Part shown: one piece after another, positions 1-44,307 of the stretch
How the letters are laid out: each line of letters starts with the position of its first letter
How positions within the stretch are numbered: position 1 is the stretch's first letter
Source: a virus
Taxonomy: Duplodnaviria > Caudoviricetes
Direction: 5' to 3' (one strand)
Virus record (IMG/VR): IMGVR_UViG_3300019996_000002
Span: 1 to 47,030 of that record
Length of the DNA: 47,030 nucleotides
The notes under the pieces: generated by a model
What the model saw: only the letters and a program-made list of their open reading frames with translations
Databases searched by the model: none
What the model was told of the DNA's origin: nothing
Position numbers and translations under genes: made by a program

Positions 1-127
1 AGAGCCGGCCGATCAGTGACGCGACGATCCTGTCGGTCTACATCGACCGGAAGGCTCGAGGGATCAAGTAGTGGCGGGCAACGAATACGACGACCTGGTC
101 GAGCAGGTCGCGCAAACGCCGGCGCCG
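1..127. repeat. Terminal direct repeat, identical to 46904-47030 (circular assembly overlap)
   Basis: Bases 1-127 (agagccggcc...gccggcgccg) match 46904-47030 exactly. The repeat spans the junction between the 582-aa gene stop and the giant gene start, so the genome closes into a 46,903-bp circle. Confidence 0.97.
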
Positions 128-9100: not shown

Positions 9101-9304
9101 GCTCGGCAGCTCTCCCAGCAAGTCAACCAGAAGAAGGCCGACGAGGGGCTTTGGCACGCGGCGAACAATGTCGCCGGCTTCCTGTTCAAGTATCCGGCGG
9201 CGCAAGTGCAGCGCACGATCGACGGTTACATCGCACTCTCAGAAGGACGGACATCCAACCCGGGCGCGCTCCTAGTCGGACCGCCCCCGAAGAACAAAAA
9301 ATGA
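71..9304 (+). CDS. Giant internal virion/DNA ejection polyvalent protein (3077 aa) with GNAT, ART-like and zincin metallopeptidase domains
   Basis: GTG start overlaps the upstream TAG (TAGTG). It is the last of three internal-virion genes after the nozzle. Motifs: GNAT (QRAGVGS...LVNFYKRFGF, about 3800-4100), ART-like (FHGS...GTGEG...GLYF...NVVVFDD, about 4130-5195), HESGH at 5372-5386 with downstream HEQFARSFEAY. Confidence 0.85.
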   Translation: MAGNEYDDLVEQVAQTPAPTPINPYDQVLESQDVEQQHKLRTSLTQQADQSPDAAAEATKLAQRTGLPLDVVQRNLPDMQKRAKIVDTPYRQMLQDTPALATWAAEPAHAAVSHDDMEQLGALDWLVSMPSRAISQSLNEQAYGALRTKSIFQPLTQAEQDQMASYKLHAQMGGELGSGDSWFKGALTKSMKLLTTLIAPQAIPTVAGGAAGAVVGGVGGFAVGGPAGVIPGALAVGKLGAEAGYTFGLGQSAFQVAAGSALDEFSETTDAYGRKLDPEVAKALAVTAGAVNAGLMVFGGKVIAAGMHEGGQQIASRLTQNAIKEAIRQPSVVAAIGQMMKSYGTTLTEGTALMVAMKAGDILTHAIAQSSGERSPVAGQLTPGNIDLFKQPAVKNADGSISTVDSFSVNVDGKEVLLPTVMPDGRHLDQAAALEEFKQTGRNLGTFDSPQAADAFAQQLHEDYAAGKYSQPTIGAQLLGAAAEGVQSFALIGLGGPAMGLARNVRKAQQAQRGVQFFQALGEGVEQSKTHKRLPEGMQSFIEHATKDGPVEKVYAPIDTWTKYWQDRDVDPAAMATELTGRADAYEQARKTGEDLAIPTARYATKLAATEHNAFFAQELRLGPDEQNGRESAALIEQIRKSAGTETKPEESPIRTALLEQLTKAGYPQATAEQMADLFSSATGEGVFGEGVAERGGELGRGGEDISKFYERYGLKVSRPEIETPGGISKPDGTPPAPGEAGGPVAIGEAAVGEGLPLGEAPVDRPEPAGAPAEVQRAAADLSGPAGAVHDVLVDPAIAAAEAALRSEALPAGTKDRLREQGLTPEQIDGMTPAEAADALKGKVAVGKQIPGARPVSDYSPADLANEATRVREMASARRLEKGPRERVLDRKSDAEQNPENYLNAEARKPAPAEEGQRPADLAGQQPGADVRGDGEGRGDGDVAQPGRTTPRGIPEIDEVFRREDKEATTARLTPEVERNLRWILEELVNFPFIEASWHWLTDENAARGKSGNAAGGNANKTPAMGGAPVFNDVIGYSPVNERTVKGEKVPARDVHGSRNDVRGAIEKLLETGHVTSNLMEGALRVAENRNAGNWRDLERPMIPPPWGEPVTREFTDALADAIDQADKPGDMKAEAGIEQDSLETAEGDTSFDITEFSQSLFDALEDPDPTKEELTKVDRLETGELQPRLPVAGDVREQNVQTPAFEAPFSLTSEVSTQKGKQTTLFQEPAPVTQASLDQFAEQVKAGHGTDVDRFQLALNRNGDIALEWIIIDRGAQRAGVGSDVMRQLTRYADANGRRILLSPAEDAGSTRSRLVNFYKRFGFVENKGRDRDFSTRAGMYRDPNAGGNLGQPLFHGSPHDFERFSLEHVGTGEGAASYGHGLYFAENPAVAANYHDQLSEGRDVVSLKLGKMKLRAPELDYTKNAHINDVENIRAAIAEDLLASPLDMNAAGEGGFRDHVLAMVDQRIADYEKEYPEGVAAAKKLRAELEKPGALAVEFTKTTGGVYQVDIPDAHIDKMLDWDAPLDEQPAAVQQLAKDLKLSPALIGLEHVEDGWQITYDGQPVGVPYNREQDARSRMRSGFRLDSGDSVVGATGEGVYHALTAALEAKRTKKLVAERTALEAKHFREGQYSGASRESIMRGTSDWTRWNAIDLELETINRGAAKEASDKLAAAGVPGLRYLDQGSRDTGEGTRNVVVFDDSIVTLTHKDGKPFTPAERKEFFQGGGGPEEGATPEQRRGAIRFGPDRQFSIDLLEKADLSTFLHESGHFFLEVFGDIADNLMAADPETLTDQQKHVLSDYGVLLQHLGVENRGEIGTPQHEQFARSFEAYLMEGKAPSLSMRTPFARFRAWLTGIYRSLKNLNVRLTPEVTGVMDRLLASDQAIKDAEAQRGVEPMFSTAESAGMEPSEFALYARTIADASKEARETLDRKLLAEVHREQQAEWKARRGEVKLEVADQVQRRPEYQAISAMLDGTNPDGSPLVEGLTTPPLKLDRKLLEEMFGKDRVKRLPRGIIAAGEGVNPDLVASMYGYSSADAMLTAVEKAPPMRDVIEQQTKRRMIEEHGSILLDGTLPAEAQASVANETRDAVIRAEMRALGRKRREVDPFVKAERAKGRDALAAEKAERDYERRWFEAEAKLRIAIAEGHKQVEIDALTTEVRQLKAQARGGAAVIRAAIPDADTVKAAALERVAGTKVRDLNPAAFWSASRRAGTQALEKAARQDFDGAITAKSQELINLAIYREMERAKSDADARARYAQGLTSKAARERLGKAGGSYLDQVDGVLDRYEFARVSQKALDRRARIKDWVDGLHAQGLPVEGLTQELLDDSRRINWKETTVAELTGVTDGLKQIEHLARLKNRLLKAADKREFEAVRDGVADGIRANLKERPKLLEVRPADQAKRIAGDYFASHRKLASLAQMMDGHVDGGPMWEAFIRPINEAGHLEETRRAEAGGAYMKILDEHYPGREILRLNEKLHIPAIDGSLSLEGRLAVAQLWGSETGRERLTNDPYRKWNEQQVLAILDTLDKRDWDFVAAHWQNLDSFWSEIAAKQERVTGLAPEKVDPLPVQTKFGEYPGGYSPLAYDGRFSVRAGQNEAASQAKLTSYSPYVQNTTKRGFVEQRVKHVGLPVRLELSVGFQHIDEVIHDLTHHEMLIDVTRLLRDPKVSSAMMETAGDIVYQQFTRGIQDIAIGSTPAARNVGEKAANFLRSRTQLALLGLNLWTGLQQPLGVFNGMDRVGVKWVAKGMGRWLRDAASMEKTTTWIAEVSPMMRERVTSGTQDLHDLRAAFNKPGGWFDKMVRTVSNDKLTQQAIVDGYLWHIGIAQRVADVPTWLGGYEKAMAAPMESRSAAEHESRAIALADQAVLDSQGGGQVKDLAQIQRGGPYARLFMTFYSYGNTVLNATARNVERTNFRSPASVMTFLGHMSLLYVLPALGTATLACGFGKKPCKDAGDFLATAGGEMLSTSMNTMVYVRELAGAAAIATGGDAGARGYGGPAALRPFEWARQLSQQVNQKKADEGLWHAANNVAGFLFKYPAAQVQRTIDGYIALSEGRTSNPGALLVGPPPKNKK
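2730..2770 (+). promoter_or_regulatory. Internal promoter, operator and RBS within the giant gene
   Basis: TTGACA (2736-2741), 17 bp, CAGAAT (2759-2764). Operator-like palindrome GAGTTCTTG-A-CAGAAAGTC at 2730-2748. GGAG at 2767-2770 before ATG 2781. Confidence 0.65.
2781..2990 (+). CDS. Overprinted small basic protein (69 aa), MPLKKG-type phage family
   Basis: Lies in the +1 frame inside the giant gene and has its own promoter and RBS. PLKKG-x4-T-x2-N-x4-M-x-AG-x5-A-x-A-x2-L pattern matches the common small phage proteins of the MPLKKG...NI...AG...QAVAIAL type. Confidence 0.65.
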   Translation: MPKLGSLPPLKKGNDLQTLRDNSLALMSAGMEKGEAMATSLNLAGLRPAASPKSTKSLGAKTKKPQPPD

Positions 9305-26187: not shown

Positions 26188-26655
26188 ATGAAAATGCGAA
26201 GTGCTCACCGTGTGGCGCTCACGTTCCTGGTCCTGGCAATGTCGGCAACCGTGCAGGCTCAGACGGTCGCGACGCCGAGCAACCGCCTGGCCTGGACCGA
26301 GGTCGGGCAGACCGTCGCGCAGGCGAGCAGCGCGACCTACAACAGCTTCCTCGACACGGCGACGACGGGCGTCGCTGTCGCCGGCGTCACATGCGCGGCC
26401 GGCACGCCGGCGACGGATGCGGCGTGCTCGAGCAACCTGCCGGTCCTGACGCTGGGGCTGCACTCGCTGACGCTGACGCAGGTCATCAGCGGCGCCGAGT
26501 CGGCGAAGTCGGCGGCCGTGACGTTCACATTCGTCGTCGTTGTGCAGCCGACCGCGCTCCGGATTGCGAAGGCGTTCGCGTTCTTCCGCGGCGGCGTGCT
26601 CGCGTCTCGAGGTCGACAGGCGCTCGGCAAGTATCAGATCCGCCCCGTTCGGTAA
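26188..26655 (+). CDS. Secreted Ig/FN3-like beta-sandwich protein
   Basis: Signal peptide ending VQA-Q. Thr/Ala-rich strands with LAW, Y...LD, GLHSLTLT, ESAKS, PTALRI, and a Cys pair. Confidence 0.7.
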   Translation: MKMRSAHRVALTFLVLAMSATVQAQTVATPSNRLAWTEVGQTVAQASSATYNSFLDTATTGVAVAGVTCAAGTPATDAACSSNLPVLTLGLHSLTLTQVISGAESAKSAAVTFTFVVVVQPTALRIAKAFAFFRGGVLASRGRQALGKYQIRPVR

Positions 26656-28368: not shown

Positions 28369-28617
28369 ATGGCGAAGAAAGCAGCAGTCAAGGGCGCGCG
28401 GCCGGCGAAGCGCAAGGACGAACCGGCGCCGGAGGCGGTCTTTCGCGAGGTCGCGACCCTGACGGTCATCGACTACAACGGGCTCGCGCCGAATCAGCGC
28501 GAGGAGCTGCAGCGCTGGCTCACGGAGCGGACAACCGAGCTGCAGGGACCGCTGACCGCGATCCCGAAGCGCTACACGGCGCACTACAAGGTGCCGGCCG
28601 GCGGAGATGGGGAATGA
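28369..28617 (+). CDS. Hypothetical protein
   Basis: AAGGAGG RBS; MAKKAAVK; ATGA coupling to the next gene. Confidence 0.75.
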   Translation: MAKKAAVKGARPAKRKDEPAPEAVFREVATLTVIDYNGLAPNQREELQRWLTERTTELQGPLTAIPKRYTAHYKVPAGGDGE

Positions 28618-29846
28618 CCGACGCTGAACGGGCCAAGCTCACGACGATCCAAGCCATGATCGGCGAGCTGCTCGCGACGGCGCCGAGTTATCCGCTGATC
28701 ACCAACGTCGCCGACTTCGACAAGGCGCTCGCGGAAGCGGCGACCGGCGCGACGCTCCGGCTCTCGAACGGCTTCGCCTACGACAAGCTGCTCGACGTGA
28801 CGAAGCCGATCAACATCATCGGCGAGACATCAGGGCTCGGCCGCATCGGCATGAAAGACCCGGCGCCGATGTTCGCGGCCGGCGCGCGGCTGCGGAGCGA
28901 CGACATTACGCTGCTCGGGCTCGAGCTGCGCCATGTGGTGACGACGACTGACATTGTCGGCAACGTCGGCGCGCGCCTGGTCATGGATCGGTGTCGCGTG
29001 CTCGGCGACCCGCTGAAGGGCGCCAAGCGCGGCATCGCAGCGAACGGCGCCGGCGCGCAAGCGTTCCGACGCTGCTACGTGGCTGACATCTTCCAGCCGG
29101 CGCAGGACACACAAGCGATCTGTGCCTGGGACTGCGAACCAGGGATCACGATCGAGGACTGCTACCTCGAGGCAGCCGGGCAGTCGTTCATGGCGGGCGG
29201 CGCGGACAGCTCGAGCGAGGAGCGCTCGCCGAGTCAGATCCGGATCGTCGGCTCGCACCTGACGAAAAATCCGTTGTGGTTCGGGATGAAGCAACAGATC
29301 AAGTGCGCGCTCGAGCTGAAGAACGCGACCGAGGTCGAGGTCGACGACTGCATCCTCGAGTATGGCGGCATCAGCCAAGGGCAGGGCGCCTACTTGATCG
29401 TTGTGACGCCGCGGAACCAGGGCGGGAAAGCTCCCTGGTCCGCAGTCGGCGACGTCGTCATCTCGGACTGCACCGGCGGCCACGCCGGCGGGATCATGAA
29501 CGTCCTTGGCTCGGACAACAACGCGCCGAGCGGCATCGTCGAGAACGTGACGCTGCAGCATTCGACGTTCGACAACATCGACCCGAAGGGGATCACGCTC
29601 GGCTCTGGCCGGCTGTTCATGTTCGATCGGGCGCCGAAGGGCGTCACGCTGAGCGACATCAAGGTCAGCGGCCAGAACATCGCGGCGCTCGGATACTTCG
29701 ATGGCGCGATGCCTGTCGGACTGGTCGTCAACAAGATGATCCTGCCGCCGAGCAAATACGGCTGGAAGATCGACGGCGGCGGAGCTGGGCGTAAGGCGCT
29801 GCTCGCAGCGATGCCGGACGCGCAGCTCGACGACACGGTCATTTGA
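28614..29846 (+). CDS. Right-handed parallel beta-helix (pectin-lyase fold) protein; putative polysaccharide depolymerase
   Basis: ALAEA..GATLRL..G start, repeating I.I.DC/N strands, KRGIAAN, QDTQAI, YLEAAG, LELKNA, TPRNQGG.APW. Confidence 0.8.
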   Translation: MTDAERAKLTTIQAMIGELLATAPSYPLITNVADFDKALAEAATGATLRLSNGFAYDKLLDVTKPINIIGETSGLGRIGMKDPAPMFAAGARLRSDDITLLGLELRHVVTTTDIVGNVGARLVMDRCRVLGDPLKGAKRGIAANGAGAQAFRRCYVADIFQPAQDTQAICAWDCEPGITIEDCYLEAAGQSFMAGGADSSSEERSPSQIRIVGSHLTKNPLWFGMKQQIKCALELKNATEVEVDDCILEYGGISQGQGAYLIVVTPRNQGGKAPWSAVGDVVISDCTGGHAGGIMNVLGSDNNAPSGIVENVTLQHSTFDNIDPKGITLGSGRLFMFDRAPKGVTLSDIKVSGQNIAALGYFDGAMPVGLVVNKMILPPSKYGWKIDGGGAGRKALLAAMPDAQLDDTVI

Positions 29847-29857
29847 GAGGAGTCAGC

Positions 29858-30700
29858 ATGGCAAGCGATCAGATCAACCTGGCGGAAGTGGCGATCATGA
29901 ACAGCCCGGCCGTCGCGAGCTGGGCGAAGACGGTCGCGATCACGCGGATCCGCTGCACGCCGGCCGGCGGTTTCGAGCTGACGTTCGATCGAGACATTCC
30001 GGAGAGCTGGAAATGGCCGAGCAATCCCGCGGTCCCGTCCGACAATTTCCAGTTCACGGTGTGGATCGTGGTGAAGCCGAGCACGGCGCTGGCGATGGCG
30101 GCCGGGTTCGTCCAGATGTGGCAAGGCCGGCCGATGGGCGAGCCGGGCCATGCGCTGCCGCCGATCTTCGCGGTCCCGCCGGGCGACCTGGTGCCGGGCT
30201 GGCGCAACTGGTGGGGCGATCCGCGCAAGCCGTGGGGTCCGATGTCTGACTACGTCCCGCAGGCCGGAGACGCGATCGGGATGTTCATCACGGCCGGCAA
30301 CGGTCGGCTCTGCACCGGACTGGACCAGGCGACCGGGCTCTCCGTGCGCGAGCGGAGCAACGTCGTGCTGTTGACGATGCCGGCCGACGACCGCGTCGAT
30401 AACGTCTACGACGGGACCGGGCCAGTCGATCCGCCCGTGGATCCGCCGGTCGATCCTCCGCCGAGCACGGGCTCAGACCTGAAGGTGCTCACGGCGGCGA
30501 TCGTGGGGCTGACGAACGACGTCCGCGCGCTCGAGGCGGAAGTCGCCGAGCAGGAGCGCACGATCGATCAGCTGGTCATCACGGTCCAGAATCAAAACGC
30601 GCTGCTGGCTACGCTCGCCGGCAAGAAGGCGCCGGCATACGCCGGGACGGTCCGGCTGCTCGGCGTGAACGGGACCGTCAACCTGAATCCCGTTCCATGA
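29858..30700 (+). CDS. Modular protein: Trp-rich beta domain, PVDP linker and coiled coil
   Basis: GAGGAG RBS; domain ending VRERSNVV; (PVDP)3 linker; heptads. Confidence 0.75.
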   Translation: MASDQINLAEVAIMNSPAVASWAKTVAITRIRCTPAGGFELTFDRDIPESWKWPSNPAVPSDNFQFTVWIVVKPSTALAMAAGFVQMWQGRPMGEPGHALPPIFAVPPGDLVPGWRNWWGDPRKPWGPMSDYVPQAGDAIGMFITAGNGRLCTGLDQATGLSVRERSNVVLLTMPADDRVDNVYDGTGPVDPPVDPPVDPPPSTGSDLKVLTAAIVGLTNDVRALEAEVAEQERTIDQLVITVQNQNALLATLAGKKAPAYAGTVRLLGVNGTVNLNPVP

Positions 30701-31316: not shown

Positions 31317-31636
31317 TGGCGGCCTTCACGACGATGGCGCTGATCGGCCTGGCCGCGGCGAGCGGGATCTACGCCGGCAGCAAGCTCGCGAACAAAGGCG
31401 CGAAGAATGACGGCGGCGAGAGTCCGCACGGCTCGATCGGCGGACCAGGGCCAACGCCGCCGACCGCGCCGCCGAGCCTGGCGCTGACCAACAGCGCAGC
31501 GACAGCGACGGCCGCCAACGCCGGCACGAAGCAGCGCAAGAAGGCGCTGGCCGCCGGCACACTCACCAACGGTCCCGGCTCGAGTCAGACGCCGGCCAAG
31601 GCCAAACTGCAGCCTAAGACGCTGCTCGGCTACTGA
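31316..31636 (+). CDS. Small virion-assembly protein preceding portal
   Basis: Gly/Ala/Pro-rich and ends KTLLGY, typical of the pre-portal gene of T7/BPP-1-like podoviruses. Confidence 0.75.
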   Translation: MAAFTTMALIGLAAASGIYAGSKLANKGAKNDGGESPHGSIGGPGPTPPTAPPSLALTNSAATATAANAGTKQRKKALAAGTLTNGPGSSQTPAKAKLQPKTLLGY

Positions 31637-33420
31637 TGGCGCTCTACAGCGATCCCCGGCTTCGGCGTGTGCGCTACGAGCAGCTCGCCGGCAAGATGAT
31701 CAGCGACCGGCAAGGCGGCGGCTTCGATGGACACTGGCGCGAGCTGGGCGATTGGACGATGCCGCGGCGGACGCGCTTCTGGACCGGCGAGAAGAATCGG
31801 ACCGGCGTCGGGTTCAACCGCAACATCATCAATTCGACGGCGCGGTTCAGCGCGCGCACGCTCTCGAGCGGACTGCACGCCGGCCTGACGTCGCCGGCTC
31901 GCCCGTGGATGAAGCTGACCACGCACGATCCGCAGCTCGCCAAGCGCAAGAACGTCGCGACCTGGCTGCACGACGTCAGCTCGCGCATGCTGACGCTGTT
32001 CGCGACGACCAATCTCTACAACGTCCTGCCCCTGGTCTATCTCGACATGGGGATCTTCGCCACCGCCGGCATGGCGATCGTGCCGGACAAGCGCGACCTG
32101 TTCCGCTGTTTCTCCTACCCAATCGGCTCCTTCGCGATCGCGCAAGACGACCGCGGCAAGACGTCGACATTCACGCGGGAATACGAGCTGAGCGTCGAGC
32201 AGATCGTCGAGCAGTTCGGCGTGCTCGACAACGGGCGGGACATTGATTGGTCGCGCATCTCGAACCACGTCAAAAGCCTCTGGGACAGCGGCGACTACCA
32301 GCAGTCGATCCCCTTGGTGTGGATGGTCAAGCGGAACGAGCAGGCGGACGCGCGCAAGCTCGCGAGCAAATACCTGCCGTTTTCGTCCTGCTATTGGGAG
32401 AAGGGCAACGAGGAGCGCATCTTTCTGAAGGAGAGCGGCTACAACAACTTCCCGATCATGGCGCCACGGTGGGACATCACCGGCGAAGACAGCTACGGAA
32501 CCGACAGCCCGGGCATGATCGCGCTCGGCGACATCAAGCAGTTGCAGATCATGGAGCGGCGCAAAGGGCAGGCGATCGCGAAGTTCGTCGACCCGGCGCT
32601 CAAAGGACCGTCGTCGCTCCGGAAGCAGAAGACGAGCCTGTTGCCGGGCGATGTGACCTATGTCGACGTCCGCGAGGGCATGCAGGGGCTCGCGCCGATC
32701 CATGAGATCCGGCTCGAGGGCGTCCGCTTCCTCAGCGACGACGCGCACGGCGTCGAGTATCGAATCCAGCGGGCGTTTTACGAGGATCTGTTCCTCATGC
32801 TCGCGCGCTCGGACGACGGCCGCGGCCAGCAGCCGGCCACGGCTCGCGAGATCGATGAGCGCCATGAGGAGAAGCTGCTCGCGCTCGGGCCGGTCCTCGA
32901 GCGGACGAACGACGAACTACTCGACCCGATCGTCGACCGCACATTCTCGATGATGGTCGCGGCCAACATGATCCCTCCGCCCCCGCAGGAGCTGCAGGGC
33001 GTCCGGCTCAAGGTGGAATACATTTCGATTCTGTCGCAGGCGCAGAAGCTGGTCGGCGTCACGGGACAAGATCGGTTCCTGCAGACGACGCTCGGGCTCG
33101 CCGAGGTCTATCCGCAGGTCCGGAACAAGGTCAACGTCAACAAGGTCGTCAACAACTACGCCGACATGCTCGGCGTCGACCCGGAAATCGTCTACTCGGA
33201 CGAACAGGCCGACGCGACCACGCAGCAGCAGGCGCAGGCGGCGCAGGAAGCGCAGGACGCCGAGACGGCGCAGAAGGTCGCCAAGGCCGCGCGCGATGCG
33301 TCGCAGGCGCCGGTCACTGGCGACTCAGCGCTGAATGCGATGGTCACGGCCGCCGGCCGCGGCAACCAGATCCCGGCACAAGCGAGCGGCTCGGCGCCCG
33401 TGCAAGTGCCGGCAGCATAG
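31636..33420 (+). CDS. Portal (head-tail connector) protein, Bbp21/T7 gp8-like
   Basis: LTSPARPW.KL, PRW.....YG.DSPG..ALGDIKQLQ, TAREI.ER.EEKL..LGPVLER...ELL.P, VEYIS.L.QAQK. Confidence 0.95.
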   Translation: MALYSDPRLRRVRYEQLAGKMISDRQGGGFDGHWRELGDWTMPRRTRFWTGEKNRTGVGFNRNIINSTARFSARTLSSGLHAGLTSPARPWMKLTTHDPQLAKRKNVATWLHDVSSRMLTLFATTNLYNVLPLVYLDMGIFATAGMAIVPDKRDLFRCFSYPIGSFAIAQDDRGKTSTFTREYELSVEQIVEQFGVLDNGRDIDWSRISNHVKSLWDSGDYQQSIPLVWMVKRNEQADARKLASKYLPFSSCYWEKGNEERIFLKESGYNNFPIMAPRWDITGEDSYGTDSPGMIALGDIKQLQIMERRKGQAIAKFVDPALKGPSSLRKQKTSLLPGDVTYVDVREGMQGLAPIHEIRLEGVRFLSDDAHGVEYRIQRAFYEDLFLMLARSDDGRGQQPATAREIDERHEEKLLALGPVLERTNDELLDPIVDRTFSMMVAANMIPPPPQELQGVRLKVEYISILSQAQKLVGVTGQDRFLQTTLGLAEVYPQVRNKVNVNKVVNNYADMLGVDPEIVYSDEQADATTQQQAQAAQEAQDAETAQKVAKAARDASQAPVTGDSALNAMVTAAGRGNQIPAQASGSAPVQVPAA

Positions 33421-33430
33421 GAGGGACGTC

Positions 33431-33760
33431 ATGCGAAGGAAGATCGCGATTCTAGTAGTAGCGGTAATGGTGCTCATCGGATCCCGCGCCGATGCCGTGC
33501 TCGCGCCGCGTGTCACCGTCGCGACGACGGCGACGCTGATCTTTACCGCGCCGCTCGCCGGCGTCAGCCGCGTGTTGATCCGGAACCCTGGCGCCGTCTC
33601 GGTCTACGTCGGGCCGGCGACCGTGACGACGGCGAATGGCTTCGAGATTGCCGGCGGCGATGCGATGGCGATCAACCTGGGCTACGGCGATACGATCTAC
33701 GGCATCGTCGCCGCGTCGACTCAGGTCGTTTACACCATCATCGGAGCGAACCCGCAATGA
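33431..33760 (+). CDS. Small beta-sandwich protein with signal peptide (decoration-like)
   Basis: GGAGG RBS. MRRKIAILVVAVMVLIGSRADA signal peptide, then strands (VLIRN...VYVG...GFEI). Confidence 0.75.
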   Translation: MRRKIAILVVAVMVLIGSRADAVLAPRVTVATTATLIFTAPLAGVSRVLIRNPGAVSVYVGPATVTTANGFEIAGGDAMAINLGYGDTIYGIVAASTQVVYTIIGANPQ

Positions 33761-34317
33761 GAAAGTTTCTGCACACGGCGACGTTTGTCGTCACTCTGCT
33801 GGCTGGCGCGATGATCTGCCGGCCGGCGGCGCAGGACTACGTCAAGGGCTGGGCCACGATCACCGGCCCATTCAGCGTCAGCGGGACGCTCGCCAGTAAT
33901 GGATCGTTCGTCGAGGCAGCCGGCGGCGTGATCTTCTGGAACACGCGCGCCGTCATGGAGAGCCAGGCGGACGGGCATTGGAGTATCGAGAACAACGCGC
34001 AGACCATCGGCGCTCGGATCAAGGTCGACTCGCTGCCGACTGTCGGCTCTGGCTTCGGCACGTCGCCGGCGGTCATCGCAGGCTCGACACCGTTCGCGGG
34101 GTCGGTGAACGTTGGCACTGGCGGCGTCGCGACGTCGGGCGTGATTACCTTCAACGGCACCGCGTTTCCAAGCGCGCCGTTCTGCGTCGCCAGCACCGGC
34201 ACGGCCAATAACTTCCCGGTGAACGTCACGCCGACCACCACGCAGGTGACGCTCGTCAGCGGCGCGGCCTGGCCGGCGTCGATTCTGGTTAGCTGGATCT
34301 GCGTCAGCGCGAAGTAA
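33757..34317 (+). CDS. Fibre/spike-like beta protein with signal peptide
   Basis: MRKFLHTATFVVTLLAGAMICRPAAQ N-terminus; C-terminal GVITF...F.SAPFCVAS...VSWIC fibre-tip-like domain. Confidence 0.7.
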   Translation: MRKFLHTATFVVTLLAGAMICRPAAQDYVKGWATITGPFSVSGTLASNGSFVEAAGGVIFWNTRAVMESQADGHWSIENNAQTIGARIKVDSLPTVGSGFGTSPAVIAGSTPFAGSVNVGTGGVATSGVITFNGTAFPSAPFCVASTGTANNFPVNVTPTTTQVTLVSGAAWPASILVSWICVSAK

Positions 34318-35387: not shown

Positions 35388-36530
35388 ATGCGAACGATTG
35401 GATTGATCATCGCGGCGACGCTCGGCCTACTGTTCATTGGCCTGGCGATCAGCCACGCCGGCGCACATCAGGCGCTCGGCCAGCTCGCGCACGTCTTCAG
35501 GGATCCGCAGTATCAGGTGCCGATCATGTTCGGCATGGCGGCGCTCGGGACGGGCAACCTGACACTGCTCGATTGGGCGAAACGGCTCGACCCGGACGGC
35601 AAGACGCCGACGATCGCCGAGCTGCTCAACCAGAAAAACGAGATCCTCGACGATATGCAGTGGCGCGAGGGCAACCTCCCGACCGGGCATCGCGTCACGA
35701 TCCGGACCGGGCTGCCGGCCGTCGCCTGGCGTCTGCTCAACCAGGGAGTCATCCCCAGCAAGTCGACGACCGCGCAGATCGACGAGCAGACCGGGATGCT
35801 CGAGGCATGGTCGGAAGTCGACAAGGATCTGGCGCTGCTCAACGGCAACCTCAATGCGTTCCGGCTCTCCGAGAGCCGCGCGTTTATCGAGGCCATGTCG
35901 CAGGAGTTTAGCCGCGTCCTGTTCTACGGCAACGGCGGCGTCAATCCGGAGCAGTTCACCGGCCTGTCGGTCCGCTACGGCGCGAGCGGCGCGGGGAACA
36001 CGGACAACGTCATCAAGGCCGGCGGCGCCGGCGCCGACAACGCGAGCATCTGGCTTGTGGCCTGGGGCGAGGACACGATCAGCGGCATCTTCCCGAAGGG
36101 GAGCAAGGCCGGCCTGATCCATGACGACTTCGGCGAGCAGACGAGCGAGGTCGTCGCCGGGCTGCCGGGCGCGCGCATGCGCGTCTATCAGGAGCGGTTC
36201 CAGTGGAAGGGCGGGATCGCGCTGAAGGATTGGCGCTACGTCGTCCGGATCTGCAACATCGACGTTTCCGACCTGAACGCGGCCAACGTCAAGACGTTGA
36301 TCAACTTCATGGAGCAGGCGATCGAGACCATCCCCGACAACCTGGGCCGGCCGGTCTTCTACATGAACCGCACGATGCGGCGCTTCCTCCGTCGCGAGGC
36401 GCGCGAGTCGGTCGGTTCCGGCGGCGGGCTCACCTACGAGAACTACGACGGCAAGCGGATCCTGATGTTCGGCGACGTGCCGATCAAACGCGCCGACACG
36501 CTGCTCAATTCGGAGGCGCTGGTCGTCTGA
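35388..36530 (+). CDS. Major capsid protein (BPP-1 Bbp17/epsilon15 gp7-like) with 49-aa hydrophobic N-terminal extension
   Basis: AKRLDPDGK, EGNLPTGH..TIRTGLP, GMLEA.SEVDK.LA.LNGN..AFRLSE, PKGSKAGL, DWRYV.RICNIDVSDL, LLNSEALVV. GGAGG at 35375-35379. Confidence 0.96.
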   Translation: MRTIGLIIAATLGLLFIGLAISHAGAHQALGQLAHVFRDPQYQVPIMFGMAALGTGNLTLLDWAKRLDPDGKTPTIAELLNQKNEILDDMQWREGNLPTGHRVTIRTGLPAVAWRLLNQGVIPSKSTTAQIDEQTGMLEAWSEVDKDLALLNGNLNAFRLSESRAFIEAMSQEFSRVLFYGNGGVNPEQFTGLSVRYGASGAGNTDNVIKAGGAGADNASIWLVAWGEDTISGIFPKGSKAGLIHDDFGEQTSEVVAGLPGARMRVYQERFQWKGGIALKDWRYVVRICNIDVSDLNAANVKTLINFMEQAIETIPDNLGRPVFYMNRTMRRFLRREARESVGSGGGLTYENYDGKRILMFGDVPIKRADTLLNSEALVV

Positions 36531-37749: not shown

Positions 37750-40700
37750 ATGGCAACGACGAACCAATACCTGACCTACGAGATTCACCTCTCGGACCTG
37801 GCGCTAGTCACCTCGCTACAGGGCAGCCTGATCGAGCCGGCGCCGGGCATCACGGGCAACGGGATCGGCGCGATCCTGGCGGCGCCGGACGATGCCGCGG
37901 TCAAGTATTCGGCGCCGAAGCTCGCGCCGCATGCGGAGTTCGTCGCGCCGTGCATCACCTCGAGCTGGTTCGGGACCGAGCAGCAATTCCCGACCAACGT
38001 CGCGACCTTCGATCGGAAGTCTGGCGGTTGGTTCGGCATCTCCTGGCTATTCGGCGATACGACCCATTACCACTGGCGCGGCATTTTCGTCTATGCGCCG
38101 GTCGAGGATCCGGTCGGCGGGCCGCCGATCAAGCCGTCGATCACGCCGCGGAGCTTCATCGACGGTTTCGAGTTTCCGCTATTCGGTGAAGGCGGCAGCG
38201 GCTCGATGGCGTGTTTCTCGCGCGAAGGCTCCCGGCACGTCGAGGGCTTCGGCCTGGCGCTCCGTTCGCATTCGGTGGCCGCGCGCAATCACCTCTACAC
38301 GGAGAACGGCGCGGCGCCGAGCAAGAAGGCTTGGGACCGCTTCTACATGCGGCTCCGGACGCTGCCGACCGGCTCGACGACCTTCTGGCGCATTCGCGAG
38401 ACGGTGCAGGCGAACGTCGGATGTGCGCTCGATATTCTTCCCAGCGGGCAGATCGCGGCCTATTTCGTCCAGAGCAGCGGCAACTACATCCTGCTCGGCA
38501 CGTGTCCCGGTCCCAACCTGAACGAATGGGTCCGCGTCGACATCCTGAGCGAGTGGACATGGCCGCCTGTCACGCACGAAAACGGGTTCGTCGTCAACAT
38601 CTACATCAACGGCGCCAACGTCCTGACGGCGACCAGGTTCGATACCGGCAGCACGTCGGGCACTGACGTTGATCGGATTTCCAGCTCCGAGATCGGTAAC
38701 GGCGTCGCGAACAGCCTGGGGCTGGACGTCGACGACTGGCACGGCTGCAGCGCGCATCCGAGTCTGCTCAGCAACGAGTGGATCAACGGCTCCGGCATCT
38801 TCCCGATCTCGCCGACCGGGCTCGACGCCGGCACGACGCCGGCCGTCTGGACCGGCGACTACCGCGCGCTCCTGCAGGATCCGCCGGACGATGGCGGCGC
38901 GACCTTCACCGGCGCGACGGCGGCGTCGACGGTCATCGTCAACACGGACGCGCTCGACATCTGCTCGGCGATGCCGGAGACGCTCGGCGCCGTCGCGGTC
39001 AACGTGGCGATCAAGGCGACGGGCGTGCAGGCCGGCGCGACGCTGGGGCTGAGCACGGCCGATGCGGACATCCCCTCGAGCGTCGGCGCGATCACGCAGC
39101 TCGGCGGCAACTGGATGCAATACCTATGGAAGAAGGGCGGGACGGACGGCGCGAAGCCGACCGGCGCCGTCAATCTGGTGTTCAACCACGGAGCGGCCGG
39201 CGCGACGACGATCAAGTGTCTGATGGCGTGCGCGGAAGTGATCGGCGCCTTCGGACCGGAGGACACGAAACTACTCTCGCCCCCGCCGGCGGTCATGCCG
39301 CAGCACTTAGGCATGCACAATTCCCCGTATCCGTCGACGCCCTGGGCGCGGCTCACGGCGACGCCGATCCAGCCGGTTTTCATCCGGTCCGGTCTCTACA
39401 CCGGCAACGGCACCGGGCAGGATCTCAAGTTTCCGGTCCCGATCCATTTCCTCTGGGTCAGACCCATCACGGCACCGAGCGGCGGGACGCGCTGGTATTC
39501 GTCGATGCTCGGACCGAAGTCTGGGCTGCTGACAAAGTCGGTTGTCGATCACATGGCGCGCGCGATGATCGATACGTCGTTCGTCGGCGGCGGCGAAACC
39601 TACGACGGCTTCCCGGCGCCGCTACCGGCTCCGCCGGCGACGGTCGTCGAGGCGATGGATCTCGCGAACCGGCTCGCCTACGGCTTCCCGAAACATACGG
39701 ACGAGAGCTACTGGACCGGGCTCGGCTACCTGAGCGATCCGGTCTATTTCTTCGGCCGCATGCTCGGCAACGGCGCGGCCGGTCCCGACATTCCGCCCTA
39801 CGGGCTCTACGCGACCGTCCCGTCGCGCTGGAACACGGCGCAGCAGCAGACCCTGGTAAAGATCGCCGGCAGCGATCCGCAGAGCAATCAGAACACGATC
39901 GTCTACTGCTATTTGGCGTTCGGCGACCCGGGAATGCGGTTCATGGTCAACGGCTGCATCAAGGATCACAAGGTCGCGGCGAACGTCATCACCACGCTCG
40001 CGCATCCGACGTTCACCCCGCTCGCCGGGTTCTTCTGGCAAGAAGTGTTTGGCGGCGCGAGCGCTGGCGCCTACTACAAGGGCACGGGCCATGCGCCGGC
40101 GACCGTCTCCCCGCTCGGCGCGGCGGAGTCTGCGAACAATGTCACGTTCGGCGCCGGCAGCCTGACATCACAAGCCGGGTTTCATGGGTCGTTCCTCGAT
40201 ATTGCGTTCTCGCTGCTCCGGATGGACGACGGCAGCGGGCAAGCCGGCAAGTCGATTTACATCGGCAAATACACCGGCGACGGTAATGCGTCGCGCTCGA
40301 TCGCGCTGGTCCCTGGCAGCGGCAAGCGGCCGGTTTGGGCAATGGTCGTTCCGCACAACGCGAATGCGATCTATCGCGATGCCTCGAACACGACCAACGT
40401 CTCGCAGCAGGTCAGCGCGGACGCGACGACGGCGACCGGCATCACCGGCGGCGACATCGATCAGATCATGGTCGGGATCACGCTCAACGCCAACGGCGTG
40501 ATCTACGAAGTGCTGGTATTTCCTGGGTCGGACGTCGCCGGCAACGGCGGTTTCTCGGTCCCGGGCGATTTCTTCCCGGTCCCGCCGGACGCTCCGCCGA
40601 ATGCGCCACACAGCATCGGCGACCCACAGGAAGCGCCGGATCCGCCGGTCGCCGATCCCTCAGAGCCGCCGGTCGAGCTGCCGGACCCGCTCCCGCCGGC

Positions 40701-42078
40701 GGGACCGATGCCGTCGTTGACCGACGACCTTGAGGGCGCATGCGAGCCGGAGACGCGCCGCATTTGCAACCTGGCGCTGACGCACATCGGGATCGGCAAG
40801 CAGATCAGCAACGTCGCGACCGACCAGACGCGCGAGGCCGTCGCGATCCGCCTGGTCTACAACGACGCGATCCAGCAAACGCTGCGCGATTTCGCTTGGC
40901 CGTTCGCGACGCGCTACGTCCAGCTTGCCGTGCTCGACGGCGGCGTCCGGCCAAATAGCGATTGGTTGTTCAAGTATCGGCAGCCGAGCGATTGTCTGTT
41001 CGAGCGGCGCCTGGTCGTCTCGCGGACCGACGTCGGCGATCCGGCGCCGTCTCCGTTCCTCTGCTCGAGCGACGACACGGGCGGGCTCATCTTCGCCAAC
41101 CTCGCCAACGCCGTGCTCGAATACACGGCGCGACCGAAGTGTCCGCACACGCGCGGAGAACCGCTGTTCAGGGAGGCCGCGGCGTGGAAACTCGCCGAGG
41201 CGATCGCGCCGGCACTCTCGAGGATGCAGGACGCGGTCGTCGCCTGTCAGAAGGGTTACGCGGAGGCGATGGCAAAGGCGACGCTGGTGCTCCGGCCTGG
41301 CATCCCGGGCGAAGTGCCGGCGACGGCGACGATCGACACGTCGGCCGCGGCCAAGCTCGCGAACCTGCAGGTCATCAACCTGGGCCTGATCCGCATCGGC
41401 GCGCGGACGATTCGGAACACGACGAGCGACCAGTCGCGCGAGGCGCAAATGGCGCGGACCGTGTTCGAGCAGGAGCTGCGCGCGACGCTGCGGGATTATC
41501 CCTGGGCCTTCGCAACGGTGTATGTGACGCCGGCGCTAGTCGGCGGGACGTCGACGGTTGCCGTCAATGGCGACTGGCAATACAGCTACCGACTGCCGGC
41601 TGATACTGTGTTCGTCCGGCGCCTGGTGTCTGCCTCGAGGCGGACCTACGAGCGCAATCCGCCGACGTTCAAGGTCGGCCGGGACGCGACCGGGCCGCTC
41701 CTGTTCACCGACTGGCAGCACACGACGGACACGCCCCTGGTCGTCGAGTATACGAACCGGCCGGAGGCGACGGTCAGCGTCGCGGATCCGCTGTTCAGGG
41801 ACGCGCTCGGCTGGCGCCTGGCGTGGACGCTGGCGCCGAGCCTGGCGATGATCATCCCTGAGACGCCGGAGACGGTCGGCCGCGGTCCGGAGGACAACCA
41901 GATCCAACGCATCCCGCGGCAGCCGCCGGCGACGGGCCAGCAGCTCCGGCAGCGCGCGGCCGACAACGCGCGGCAGTGTTACTACTTCGCGCTCGCGACA
42001 GCGACGACGGCGGCGGCCAATGAGGATCAGCCGGACATCGCGCCGATCGATGCCGACTGGATCAGCGGGCGGGAATAG
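37750..42078 (+). CDS. Fused fibre/lectin-like protein with two tandem tail adaptor (tail tubular protein A-like) domains
   Basis: Occupies the adaptor gene position before the nozzle. N-terminal ConA/LamG-like region, YTGNG/YTGDG repeats, Pro-rich linker, then two copies of IxNLAL..IG.....D..REA......Y......LRD..W.FA...DW...YR.P.D. Confidence 0.85.
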   Translation: MATTNQYLTYEIHLSDLALVTSLQGSLIEPAPGITGNGIGAILAAPDDAAVKYSAPKLAPHAEFVAPCITSSWFGTEQQFPTNVATFDRKSGGWFGISWLFGDTTHYHWRGIFVYAPVEDPVGGPPIKPSITPRSFIDGFEFPLFGEGGSGSMACFSREGSRHVEGFGLALRSHSVAARNHLYTENGAAPSKKAWDRFYMRLRTLPTGSTTFWRIRETVQANVGCALDILPSGQIAAYFVQSSGNYILLGTCPGPNLNEWVRVDILSEWTWPPVTHENGFVVNIYINGANVLTATRFDTGSTSGTDVDRISSSEIGNGVANSLGLDVDDWHGCSAHPSLLSNEWINGSGIFPISPTGLDAGTTPAVWTGDYRALLQDPPDDGGATFTGATAASTVIVNTDALDICSAMPETLGAVAVNVAIKATGVQAGATLGLSTADADIPSSVGAITQLGGNWMQYLWKKGGTDGAKPTGAVNLVFNHGAAGATTIKCLMACAEVIGAFGPEDTKLLSPPPAVMPQHLGMHNSPYPSTPWARLTATPIQPVFIRSGLYTGNGTGQDLKFPVPIHFLWVRPITAPSGGTRWYSSMLGPKSGLLTKSVVDHMARAMIDTSFVGGGETYDGFPAPLPAPPATVVEAMDLANRLAYGFPKHTDESYWTGLGYLSDPVYFFGRMLGNGAAGPDIPPYGLYATVPSRWNTAQQQTLVKIAGSDPQSNQNTIVYCYLAFGDPGMRFMVNGCIKDHKVAANVITTLAHPTFTPLAGFFWQEVFGGASAGAYYKGTGHAPATVSPLGAAESANNVTFGAGSLTSQAGFHGSFLDIAFSLLRMDDGSGQAGKSIYIGKYTGDGNASRSIALVPGSGKRPVWAMVVPHNANAIYRDASNTTNVSQQVSADATTATGITGGDIDQIMVGITLNANGVIYEVLVFPGSDVAGNGGFSVPGDFFPVPPDAPPNAPHSIGDPQEAPDPPVADPSEPPVELPDPLPPAGPMPSLTDDLEGACEPETRRICNLALTHIGIGKQISNVATDQTREAVAIRLVYNDAIQQTLRDFAWPFATRYVQLAVLDGGVRPNSDWLFKYRQPSDCLFERRLVVSRTDVGDPAPSPFLCSSDDTGGLIFANLANAVLEYTARPKCPHTRGEPLFREAAAWKLAEAIAPALSRMQDAVVACQKGYAEAMAKATLVLRPGIPGEVPATATIDTSAAAKLANLQVINLGLIRIGARTIRNTTSDQSREAQMARTVFEQELRATLRDYPWAFATVYVTPALVGGTSTVAVNGDWQYSYRLPADTVFVRRLVSASRRTYERNPPTFKVGRDATGPLLFTDWQHTTDTPLVVEYTNRPEATVSVADPLFRDALGWRLAWTLAPSLAMIIPETPETVGRGPEDNQIQRIPRQPPATGQQLRQRAADNARQCYYFALATATTAAANEDQPDIAPIDADWISGRE

Positions 42079-44307
42079 ATGGCAACGCCACAGTCGACAT
42101 TCCAGCGATCGCTTGCGGCCGGCGAGCTGGCGCCGGCGCTCCACGCGCGAGCCGACCAGGTCAAGTATCTGACCGGGCTCCGGCGCTGCCGCAACTTCCT
42201 GGTCCAGCGCGAAGGCGGCGCGACGAACCGCCCCGGGACCAGGTTCGTCGCGCCGTGCATGACGAACGACATTGACGTCATGCTGATGCGCTACGTCTCG
42301 GAGAACGTCGGCGAGTCGGTGCTGATCGAAGTCAACGAGACGACGATCCGCTTCTACGTGAACGGCGCGCTGCTCGAGGTCGACAGCGGCACGATCGACC
42401 CCTACGGCGGCGGCGTCGACTACGTCGTCGGCGACCTGGTCACAGCCGGCGGCGTCGTTTACTACAGCCTCGAGGTCCAGACCGGCGTCGCCCCGCCGGG
42501 CGCAAGCTGGTATGCGTTCACCGGCGAGACGTTCGAGCTGCCGAGTCCGTTCGGCGAGGATCTGCCGCACTGGAACCAAAGCGGCCGGACGATCACCCTG
42601 ACGCATCGCGACCATGTGCCGTATGAGCTGATCAACGGCGGCGCGCTGACAAGCTGGATCTTCCGGCCGGTCGTCACGGAAACGGCCGGCGTCGCGCCGG
42701 TCGGCCTGGTCGTCACGCCGGGCGGCAACACGGGCACGCTGACGATCGCCTACGTGGTGACGTCGGCGACAGCCGACAGCTACGAGGAGAGCATCGCGTC
42801 GGGCGTCGTCATCAACTCCGGCATCGGTCTGCCGGATGCAGCAATGCCGGACGTCCTGGCATGGACCGCGGTCCCTGGCGCGGCCGAGTATTACGTCTAC
42901 ATGGATCCGGCCGGCAACGGCATTTTCGGCTACATCGGGACCGCGCAAAGCAACGGCTTCACCAACACGGGGATCTTGCCCGACTTCCTGAGCACGCCCC
43001 CGCTCGCGCGTCCGCTGTTCGCGTCGACCGACAACTATCCCGATCGCTCCGGCAACTTCCAGCAGCGCCGGCTGTTCGGCTTCACCAACAACGCGCCTGA
43101 TGCGATCTTTGGCTCGCGGACCGGCTTCGCGTCCAACTTCGGCATCTCGCAACCGCTGCAAGACGACGATGCGATCACGTTCCGGATCGCCGGCAACAAC
43201 CACAATCCGATCAAGCATCTCCTGAGCCTGAAGGGATTGATTGCGGCGACCGGCGCCGGCGCCTGGACGATCACCGGCGGCGGTCCCAACCTCCCGCTGA
43301 CGCCGTCGCAGCTCGAGGCGGACCAGACGACGTATACCGGCTTCGGCGAAGTCCCTCCGGTCCTAGTCGGCAACTCGATCATCTACGTCGAGCACTTGGG
43401 CCGGACCGTCTTCGATCTGCAATTCGACCAGCAGGTCGAGGGGCTCGGCGGCAAAGACCTGACGATCTTCGCGTCGCACCTGTTTCGCGCGCACACCATT
43501 CGCGAATTGGACTACGCGCAGAATCCCGACAGCGTCGTCTGGTGCTGCCGGGACGATGGCACGCTGCTAGGGCTGACCTACATCCGAGAGCAGGAAGTCC
43601 TGGGCTGGCACCGGCACGACAGCGGCGCGAGCTGCCGCTTTGAGCATGTGTGTGTCGTTCCGGAGGCAGACGGCGATACGGTCTACTTCATCACGCGGCG
43701 CACGATCAACGGCGGTTTCACCCGGCAGATCGAGCGGTTCGTCTCGCGCGAGATCATCACGTTCGATACGGATGCGTTCTTTGTCGACTGCGGGCTCAGC
43801 TACTCCGGCGCTCCGGTCAACAACGTCGCCGGCCTGGGCCACCTCGAGGGCGAGGTCGTCGCGGTCGTCGGCGACGGCGCGGTCATCTTCAACGGCGACG
43901 CAACGGCCGCCAACGCCGGCGACTTCACGATCACGGCCGGGACATTCCCGATTGACTTCCCGGCCAGCTATTCAAATATTCACGTCGGCATCCCGATCAC
44001 GGCGCAGCTCGAGACGCTCGACCTTGACGTGCAGGGCTCGCAGGTCCGCGATCGGCGCAAGCGCGTCGCGGCCGTCACGCTCCTGCTCGAGCGCAGCTCG
44101 AGGACATTTAGGGTCGGGCCGGACGTCGGCAACCTGACGCAGCTCTCGCTCGAGCCGTATGAGACCATGACCGACGAATTTACCGGACCCGTCGAGCTGA
44201 CCGTCGTCTCGCAATTCGACGAGCTCGGTCGCGTCTTCATTCACCACACGGATCCGCTACCGTTGACCGTGCTCGGCATCCTGCCGAGCGTCGAGCTGGG
44301 AGGATAG
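42079..44307 (+). CDS. Tail nozzle / tail tubular protein B (T7 gp12/P22 gp10-like)
   Basis: Q.S.AAGELAP.L.AR.D, NF.V...GG..NRPGTRFV, F.QRRL.FG, DLT..ASHLF, Y.REQEV.GWH.H, L.HLEG..V, PLPLTVL.I. Confidence 0.92.
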   Translation: MATPQSTFQRSLAAGELAPALHARADQVKYLTGLRRCRNFLVQREGGATNRPGTRFVAPCMTNDIDVMLMRYVSENVGESVLIEVNETTIRFYVNGALLEVDSGTIDPYGGGVDYVVGDLVTAGGVVYYSLEVQTGVAPPGASWYAFTGETFELPSPFGEDLPHWNQSGRTITLTHRDHVPYELINGGALTSWIFRPVVTETAGVAPVGLVVTPGGNTGTLTIAYVVTSATADSYEESIASGVVINSGIGLPDAAMPDVLAWTAVPGAAEYYVYMDPAGNGIFGYIGTAQSNGFTNTGILPDFLSTPPLARPLFASTDNYPDRSGNFQQRRLFGFTNNAPDAIFGSRTGFASNFGISQPLQDDDAITFRIAGNNHNPIKHLLSLKGLIAATGAGAWTITGGGPNLPLTPSQLEADQTTYTGFGEVPPVLVGNSIIYVEHLGRTVFDLQFDQQVEGLGGKDLTIFASHLFRAHTIRELDYAQNPDSVVWCCRDDGTLLGLTYIREQEVLGWHRHDSGASCRFEHVCVVPEADGDTVYFITRRTINGGFTRQIERFVSREIITFDTDAFFVDCGLSYSGAPVNNVAGLGHLEGEVVAVVGDGAVIFNGDATAANAGDFTITAGTFPIDFPASYSNIHVGIPITAQLETLDLDVQGSQVRDRRKRVAAVTLLLERSSRTFRVGPDVGNLTQLSLEPYETMTDEFTGPVELTVVSQFDELGRVFIHHTDPLPLTVLGILPSVELGG

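Follow-up and report, generated by a model that had tools for sequence, protein, structure and literature searches.

A tail adaptor gene of uncultured podophages that joins an appendage module to tandem adaptor units and may build stacked neck rings

We analysed a 47,030-base stretch of DNA (hereafter the window) from a virus of the Caudoviricetes (Duplodnaviria), IMG/VR record IMGVR_UViG_3300019996_000002, in which a single gene at positions 37750-42078 encodes an N-terminal appendage module (the head), a proline-rich linker and two tail adaptor units, A1 and A2. Comparison of these units with those of related proteins suggests, with a probability of roughly 70%, that twelve chains form two stacked 12-mer rings with twelve covalent arms, rather than one ring.

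Two adaptor units in one chain

The gene is one open reading frame (ORF) on the plus strand with zero internal stops, and its product of 1442 amino acids (aa) is encoded between the capsid genes and the nozzle gene, as podophage adaptors are. A preliminary description of this DNA, made from its letters alone, had placed a protein of about 1440 aa, rather than about 200, in the adaptor slot and had ended it in two homologous adaptor domains. The ORF agrees with the former statement. The latter is borne out by two matches to phrog_394, "tail protein" (E-value (E) 9.8e-50), by 39% identity between A1 and A2 over 161 aa (E 1e-35), and by the presence in the translation of the motifs then quoted; the proline-rich linker described between module and adaptors is also present. 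The parts of the gene, all on the plus strand, are as follows.

37750-42078, plus strand: whole gene, 1442 aa (appendage module, proline-rich linker, adaptor units A1 and A2)
37750-38133, plus strand: N-terminal beta/alpha segment, aa 1-128, conserved in the family, without a family match
38137-38787, plus strand: LamG/concanavalin-like jelly-roll, aa 130-346, candidate glycan-binding domain (VIA fold match; atlas near-match to PF13385, 0.93)
38788-39264, plus strand: second all-beta domain, aa 347-505, without a family match
39367-40584, plus strand: DUF7483-like region, aa 540-945 (atlas 0.92, PF24299 in 23 of 30 matches; BFVD matches)
40585-40740, plus strand: proline-rich linker (55 aa and 33% proline as measured; family median about 50 aa)
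40741-41289, plus strand: adaptor unit A1, putative lower, nozzle-side ring (8CK1_E, E 1.3e-9)
41290-41343, plus strand: 18-aa inter-unit linker, which replaces the hook and is similar to it in length
41344-42075, plus strand: adaptor unit A2, putative upper, portal-side ring (C-terminal hook at 42025-42075)

By sequence, A1 matches the Carin-1 connector 8CK1_E. By fold, a model of the adaptor pair matches the adaptors of Carin-1, LME-1, KP32 and T7 (Foldseek: 8ck1_E, E 2.1e-10, template modelling (TM) score by target 0.75; 7box_M, E 8.8e-5), and the order of a four-helix bundle and a beta-sandwich dock is seen in both units of the model. Most rows of the VIA structure matches cover A1, and A2 is covered by 7wmp_m (Z 9.1, root-mean-square deviation (rmsd) 5.7, 173 residues aligned). 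These matches support the podophage adaptor fold (Carin-1/T7 gp11) for both repeats, as the preliminary description had supposed.

The two units have kept different parts of a single adaptor. A1 retains single-adaptor-like helix-bundle loops and cysteines and has no C-terminal hook, the element that embraces the portal; A2 retains single-adaptor-like beta hairpins and the hook, and has acquired an insertion of about 30 aa near the tip of helices 3-4 (about 41848-41934). Across the family, the C-terminal tail (hook) motif was found in 102 of 106 last units vs none of 106 first units.

The fused gene and its relatives

Relatives were collected by three word-index searches (length limits 2310, 2524 and 2734 aa) and one profile search (best 150 of 8441 matches), with the query and its near copy excluded. 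The searches were seeded with a tandem protein, and the shares of the copy numbers are not prevalences. Among the matches listed there were 236 relatives, 188 of them with the full head module; these carried one adaptor unit (79), two (105), three (2), four (1) or none (1). The remaining relatives had a different N-terminal fusion (12), a partial module (17), or were unfused or fragments (19), and two or three units were present in 16 of these last 19. Five or more units were found neither in the 236 relatives listed nor in the loci examined. In 129 loci, the adaptor gene always preceded the nozzle gene wherever both were present, and no unfused adaptor was found there with the head module next to it. 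Since 79 relatives carry this module on a single adaptor, fusion is separable from duplication, and a ring can evidently bear twelve arms, provided that the single-adaptor chains stay whole.

The fused gene is real and not an assembly artefact. In sequencing run X1, one contig of depth 211 is identical to the window over 38725-42600, without a gap, and thereby crosses both junctions of the gene, where the preliminary description had advised looking for a stop or frameshift; indels were listed in none of the four runs mapped to the gene. That assembly or gene calling joined three separate genes gains something from the facts that no single contig spans the entire gene and that runs X1-X3 may themselves be the source of the window. 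Nevertheless, there is practically no chance that this is so, because 105 diverged proteins from several sources share the full module followed by two adaptors, a stronger argument than the contig match. They also answer the call in the preliminary description for the same architecture in related contigs.

Chains of three units occur in the fused family and, unfused, in P0134/L071, P0138, P0165 and P0181. In trees built by a quick method and by FastTree (no approximately unbiased test), the fused single, first, last and middle units form one supported group, and three groups of unfused tandems lie apart from it. This branching suggests that tandem adaptors arose about four times. The unfused triple adaptor of L071 (L071:9986-11818, 610 aa) belongs to a separate lineage, and beta-domain insertions are frequent in its two- and three-unit relatives (P0138, P0148, P0151 and others). 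In another locus, two complete adaptor genes with near-identical hooks are adjacent (L157:354-2387 and L157:2397-3056), one of them with a beta-rich N-terminal fusion other than the head module; the pair may represent a two-gene intermediate or a ring of mixed composition.

None of 50,697 deposited phage records covers 80% of the protein, the nearest being epsilon15-like single adaptors at about 31% identity. Searches of open-access paper listings yielded no tandem or appendage-fused adaptor; within that range, the statement in the preliminary description that no described virion of this design was known holds. The protein family is widespread and apparently undescribed.

Partition of single-adaptor features among the units

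We compared 65 dereplicated tandems with 24 fused single adaptors. The first unit was closer to the fused singles in helices 1-2 (59 of 65 tandems) and in the loop between them (55 of 65); for the beta hairpins (55 of 65) and the hook (65 of 65) it was the last unit that lay closer. A GRGP-type insertion at the helix 3-4 tip was present in 91 of 106 last units and in all five middle units, and in none of 178 single or first units (0/106 first, 0/24 fused single, 0/48 unfused single). Middle units were mosaics, with an upper domain of the first type in 9 of 9 (one a near tie) and a lower domain of the last type in 7 of 9. The borders of these segments coincide with the boundary between the domains of the Xacm4-11 adaptor, in which helices 1-4 make up the lower domain and the beta sandwich and hook the upper (10.64898/2026.02.16.706137). 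In the fused family the mosaic implies three switches between types within a unit, too many for a single unequal crossover, and the same mosaic appears in the unfused triples L071 and P0165, which are from separate lineages. Such middle units are expected of a stack, since the top of an inner ring must fit the ring above and its underside the ring below.

Several observations weigh against two rings. The effect sizes of the partition are modest (0.41 vs 0.34; 0.46 vs 0.35), the 65 tandems share one origin, and the five middle units of the fused family are one clade and count once. Helix 3 shows the reverse pattern, with the last unit closer to the singles and the first closer in only 18 of 105, contrary to what a clean division into top and bottom would lead one to expect. 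In 13 unfused tandems there was no hairpin partition (6/13), and the upper domain was closer to the singles in the first unit (10/13); the two middle units that fail the lower-domain test are P0138 and P0181 (2/9). That the last unit has kept the hook is in part trivial, as only that unit has a free C-terminus. All copy numbers seen, one to four, divide 12, and none breaks divisibility. Mean-field covariation (effective depth 103) gave plausible within-unit pairs and no clear signal between units: pairs of the A1 top with the A2 tip numbered 3 in the top 20, vs 3.0 expected, although 22 vs 14.8 expected in the top 100. Finally, the model of the tandem has a predicted TM score (pTM) of 0.48 and leaves the relative orientation of the units open. 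In 11 of the 16 VIA matches with Z of at least 8, the C-terminal end of the target fell on helix 2 of A2, as though A2 occupied the place to which the hook points; this alignment was given no weight (rmsd 5.6-8.6 Å, pTM 0.48).

Arrangement of the units in the neck

Single-domain podophage adaptors (Carin-1 8CK1, LME-1 orf17 9EFK, T7 gp11 and the phrog_394 proteins of epsilon15/phiV10) share with the fused protein the fold and the slot between capsid and nozzle genes, and identity to the epsilon15 adaptor gene is about 31%. They differ in being about 200 aa long, with one domain per chain, one ring and separately encoded, docked fibres, whereas the present chain has 1442 aa and two adaptor domains. 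Duplicated adaptor-fold units, as here, make up the crAss001 barrel (R1-R5; gp43, gp40, gp35, gp34) and phi24B gp64/gp62. In crAss001, five rings are stacked and ring 5 contacts the muzzle via residues 15-26 (PMC10172136); phi24B has two stacked adaptor rings, and one to three occur (10.64898/2026.04.10.717836, which also cites the neck and tail adaptors of GP4 as a further multi-ring example). In both phages contact with the portal is confined to the top ring, and the 12-to-6 transition to the bottom ring. Their ring proteins come from separate genes, are 15-31% identical to one another and have fibres docked non-covalently. The window likewise encodes two paralogous adaptor-fold units, but in one ORF, as a chain of units 39% identical with a fused head, and the phage is not a crassvirus. 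In its working, the fused protein most likely resembles the necks of crAss001 and phi24B.

The preliminary description had instead placed six chains in one ring of twelve domains, each chain supplying two neighbouring subunits, with six arms, so that the duplication would solve the 12:6 symmetry step; A1 and A2 would then be specialised for two environments on the hexameric nozzle. Most tandems do have two units (105 of the 108 with the full module), alternate subunits differ at the nozzle in solved tails, the 18-aa linker is long enough for either geometry, and a split between left and right faces could also yield mosaic middle units. The divisibility of 12 by the copy numbers also fits a single ring, but every integer up to 4 divides 12 and the fit weighs little. 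Moreover, the mosaic borders track the boundary between upper and lower domains. A single ring would forfeit half of its portal hooks (three quarters with four-unit chains), though the portal interface drives ring formation in T7, where the portal is gripped by the embracing helix (hook), the end of helix 4 and the fibre dock of gp11, and the surface that gp11 buries against the portal exceeds that buried against the adjacent subunit (PMC6702177). Three-unit chains would place four chains, with C4 symmetry, on a C6 nozzle. The existence of unfused two- and three-unit adaptors argues against arm number as a general driver, and structures with duplicated adaptors in stacked rings already exist for crAss001 and phi24B. 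The single-ring arrangement is therefore unlikely, and the symmetry mechanism first proposed is probably wrong, since the single-adaptor fusions, the three-unit forms, the face partition and the stacked precedents speak against it.

In the two-ring arrangement that we prefer, A2 would form the upper ring, gripping the portal clip and stem by its beta domain and hook, and A1 the lower ring, with the hexameric nozzle seated on its helix-bundle loops; in SU10 the nozzle binds the adaptor helix bundle (PMC9509320). The 18-aa linker would rise from the top of A1 onto A2 along the usual path of the hook to the portal. The tail would be lengthened by about one ring, some 4.6 nm as judged from 23 nm per five rings in crAss001, and extra middle units, with an underside of the last type and a top of the first type, would add further rings. 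From the lower ring, proline-rich tethers would suspend twelve monomeric heads, probably glycan-binding, in the place of docked trimeric fibres. The putative partners of the two units are encoded on either side.

31636-33420, plus strand: portal, PF12236, putative partner of A2
42079-44307, plus strand: nozzle-type tail protein, phrog_376, 742 aa, putative partner of A1

The number of arms would be lower than twelve if the head were cut off at the proline-rich linker, or if an internal start gave a plain double adaptor that mixed into the rings. The present linker does contain a methionine (aa 987), the records of a few family-type tandems lack the module (P0129, P0140, P0145, possibly fragments), and L157 has a fused and an unfused adaptor as adjacent genes. 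However, the last 30 linker residues include a methionine in just 24 of 112 proteins with two units and 7 of 90 with one, which leaves a conserved internal start unsupported; the module was found beside no unfused adaptor in the 129 loci; and the frame breaks in L002, L005 and L089 vary in position, a pattern more in keeping with sequence errors than with a programmed signal. We regard such processing as improbable and expect the chain to be present uncut in the virion.

The N-terminal head

The model of aa 1-950 (predicted local distance difference test 82, pTM 0.81) is nearly all beta, with beta-sandwich domains, short helices only and a low-confidence insertion at about aa 614-697 (39589-39840). 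The 945-aa head is thus predicted to be a compact monomer of a LamG jelly-roll and DUF7483-like repeats. No triple coiled coil, collagen repeat or beta-helix shaft was seen in it (monomer model of aa 1-950; no Gly-X-Y run). The lectin-like part of the N-terminal region named in the preliminary description is upheld, but a fibre is not, the prediction being a compact cluster of beta domains.

The jelly-roll (aa 130-346) is closest in fold to polysaccharide lyases and carbohydrate-binding modules (VIA, 5gmt_B: Z 16.4, rmsd 2.8 Å, 194 residues aligned, 8% identity), which makes it a candidate glycan-binding domain. The region of aa 540-945 resembles DUF7483 (PF24299) phage proteins by language-model features (0.92, 23/30) and by viral structure models, and contains two YTG[ND]G motifs; no open-access paper naming DUF7483 was found. 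For the head domains as a whole, the likeness to LamG-like and DUF7483 phage proteins is at the level of fold and features only. The local Pfam copy gave no hidden Markov model match for the head domains, the PDB no significant sequence match for the head with a single sequence or a profile (one weak match, E 0.019), and tblastn of aa 540-945 no match in the phage collection; the whole-PDB fold search of the head was dominated by the jelly-roll and barely covered its other domains. A toxin identity of the head was rejected, as the matches to botulinum and tetanus receptor domains are those of a generic jelly-roll (TM by query 0.13-0.16, identity 7-15%).

Family identities place the jelly-roll among the most variable parts of the module. 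At 38338-38754 (aa 197-335), a minority allele (depth 37/196, 19/139 and 47/279 in X1-X3) has 39 substitutions in 417 bp, without an indel and confined to the jelly-roll coding sequence; they are of mixed types and not adenine-only. Some relatives have Ig-like or CBM5/12 domains inserted. From these features, it is likely that the head binds the host surface.

Alternatively, the head could be structural, a collar or capsid brace, with host recognition left to another gene, for example 28614-29846, 29843-30700 or 33757-34317. This concerns the head only and is compatible with stacking. Jelly-roll proteins are displayed around the adaptor in A1002, DEV and GP4 too, and the adaptor collars of A1002 are structural (PMC13730344); these collars and fibres are separate proteins on the beta dock and not N-terminal fusions. 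The three ORFs have no annotation and could be appendages, and the glycan role of the head is putative. Against a structural head stand the variability of the jelly-roll with its 39-substitution minority allele and the Ig-like and CBM5/12 insertions, and matches to the three ORFs turned up in just 1, 0 and 1 of the 129 loci, respectively, whose flanks are often too short. We therefore consider it rather unlikely, though less so than processing of the chain. The absence of a separate fibre gene, as first described, holds in the sense that none was recognised among the 28 ORFs scanned against PHROGs.

By eye, the 410-aa ORF at 28614-29846 has beta-helix-like repeats behind a short helical start and is a possible tailspike or depolymerase; no family, structure or viral-contig relative was found for it, except one partial match in L061. 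In the 285-aa ORF at 29843-30700, which matched no family, an N-terminal domain rich in aromatic residues is accompanied by PVDP repeats and, at the C-terminus, a stretch resembling a coiled coil.

Genome context

The source record of 47,030 bases has a 127-base terminal repeat, given which the phage genome of the window is probably complete. Its gene order is like that of epsilon15 and BPP-1: portal (31636), a scaffold-like gene, major capsid (35388), a Bbp16-like gene (36605), the fused adaptor gene, the nozzle-type tail gene (42079) immediately 3' of it, and internal virion genes. Nozzle lengths are 727-769 aa in fused-adaptor phages (42 loci) vs 618-959 aa in phages with unfused single adaptors (52 loci), and the fused-adaptor phages often have capsid ORFs of 375-390 aa. 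After the ejection genes, across the genome end, positions 71-9304 encode a 3077-aa polyvalent protein (LPD22; weak GNAT and ART-PolyVal matches). It is followed by a small hemolysin/holin-like gene, in the position of the epsilon15 tailspike. Hydrophobic, signal-peptide-like starts were noted by eye at 26188-26655, about 33422-33760, 33757-34317 and 35388-35540 (longest capsid reading).

The sequencing runs that hold 99% of the sampled words of the window are soil metagenomes from which it may derive, with no RNA dataset among the listed holders of the sequence. One relative, L016, is a 32-kb contig inside a Steroidobacteraceae metagenome-assembled genome and may be mis-binned.

Implications

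Podophage tails have no tape-measure protein, and to our knowledge longer podophage necks are known only from separate ring genes. We tentatively suggest, at somewhat less than even odds, that a widespread clade of uncultured podophages merged its neck rings and host-recognition apparatus in one polyprotein, twelve chains of which would self-register into a multi-ring tail, with length set by stackable units (one to four) and twelve covalent, monomeric, lectin-like arms replacing trimeric fibres altogether. Were the single-ring arrangement to prove right instead, the gene would encode the 12-to-6 symmetry step in an unusual way. If the stacked arrangement is true, a polyprotein with a repeatable middle unit would write tail length as repeat number, and twelve covalent, monomeric receptor-binding arms would be a host-recognition design distinct from docked trimeric fibres. 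The family would then offer a natural series of one, two, three and four units for the study of ring stacking and of whether longer necks help to cross thick cell surfaces.

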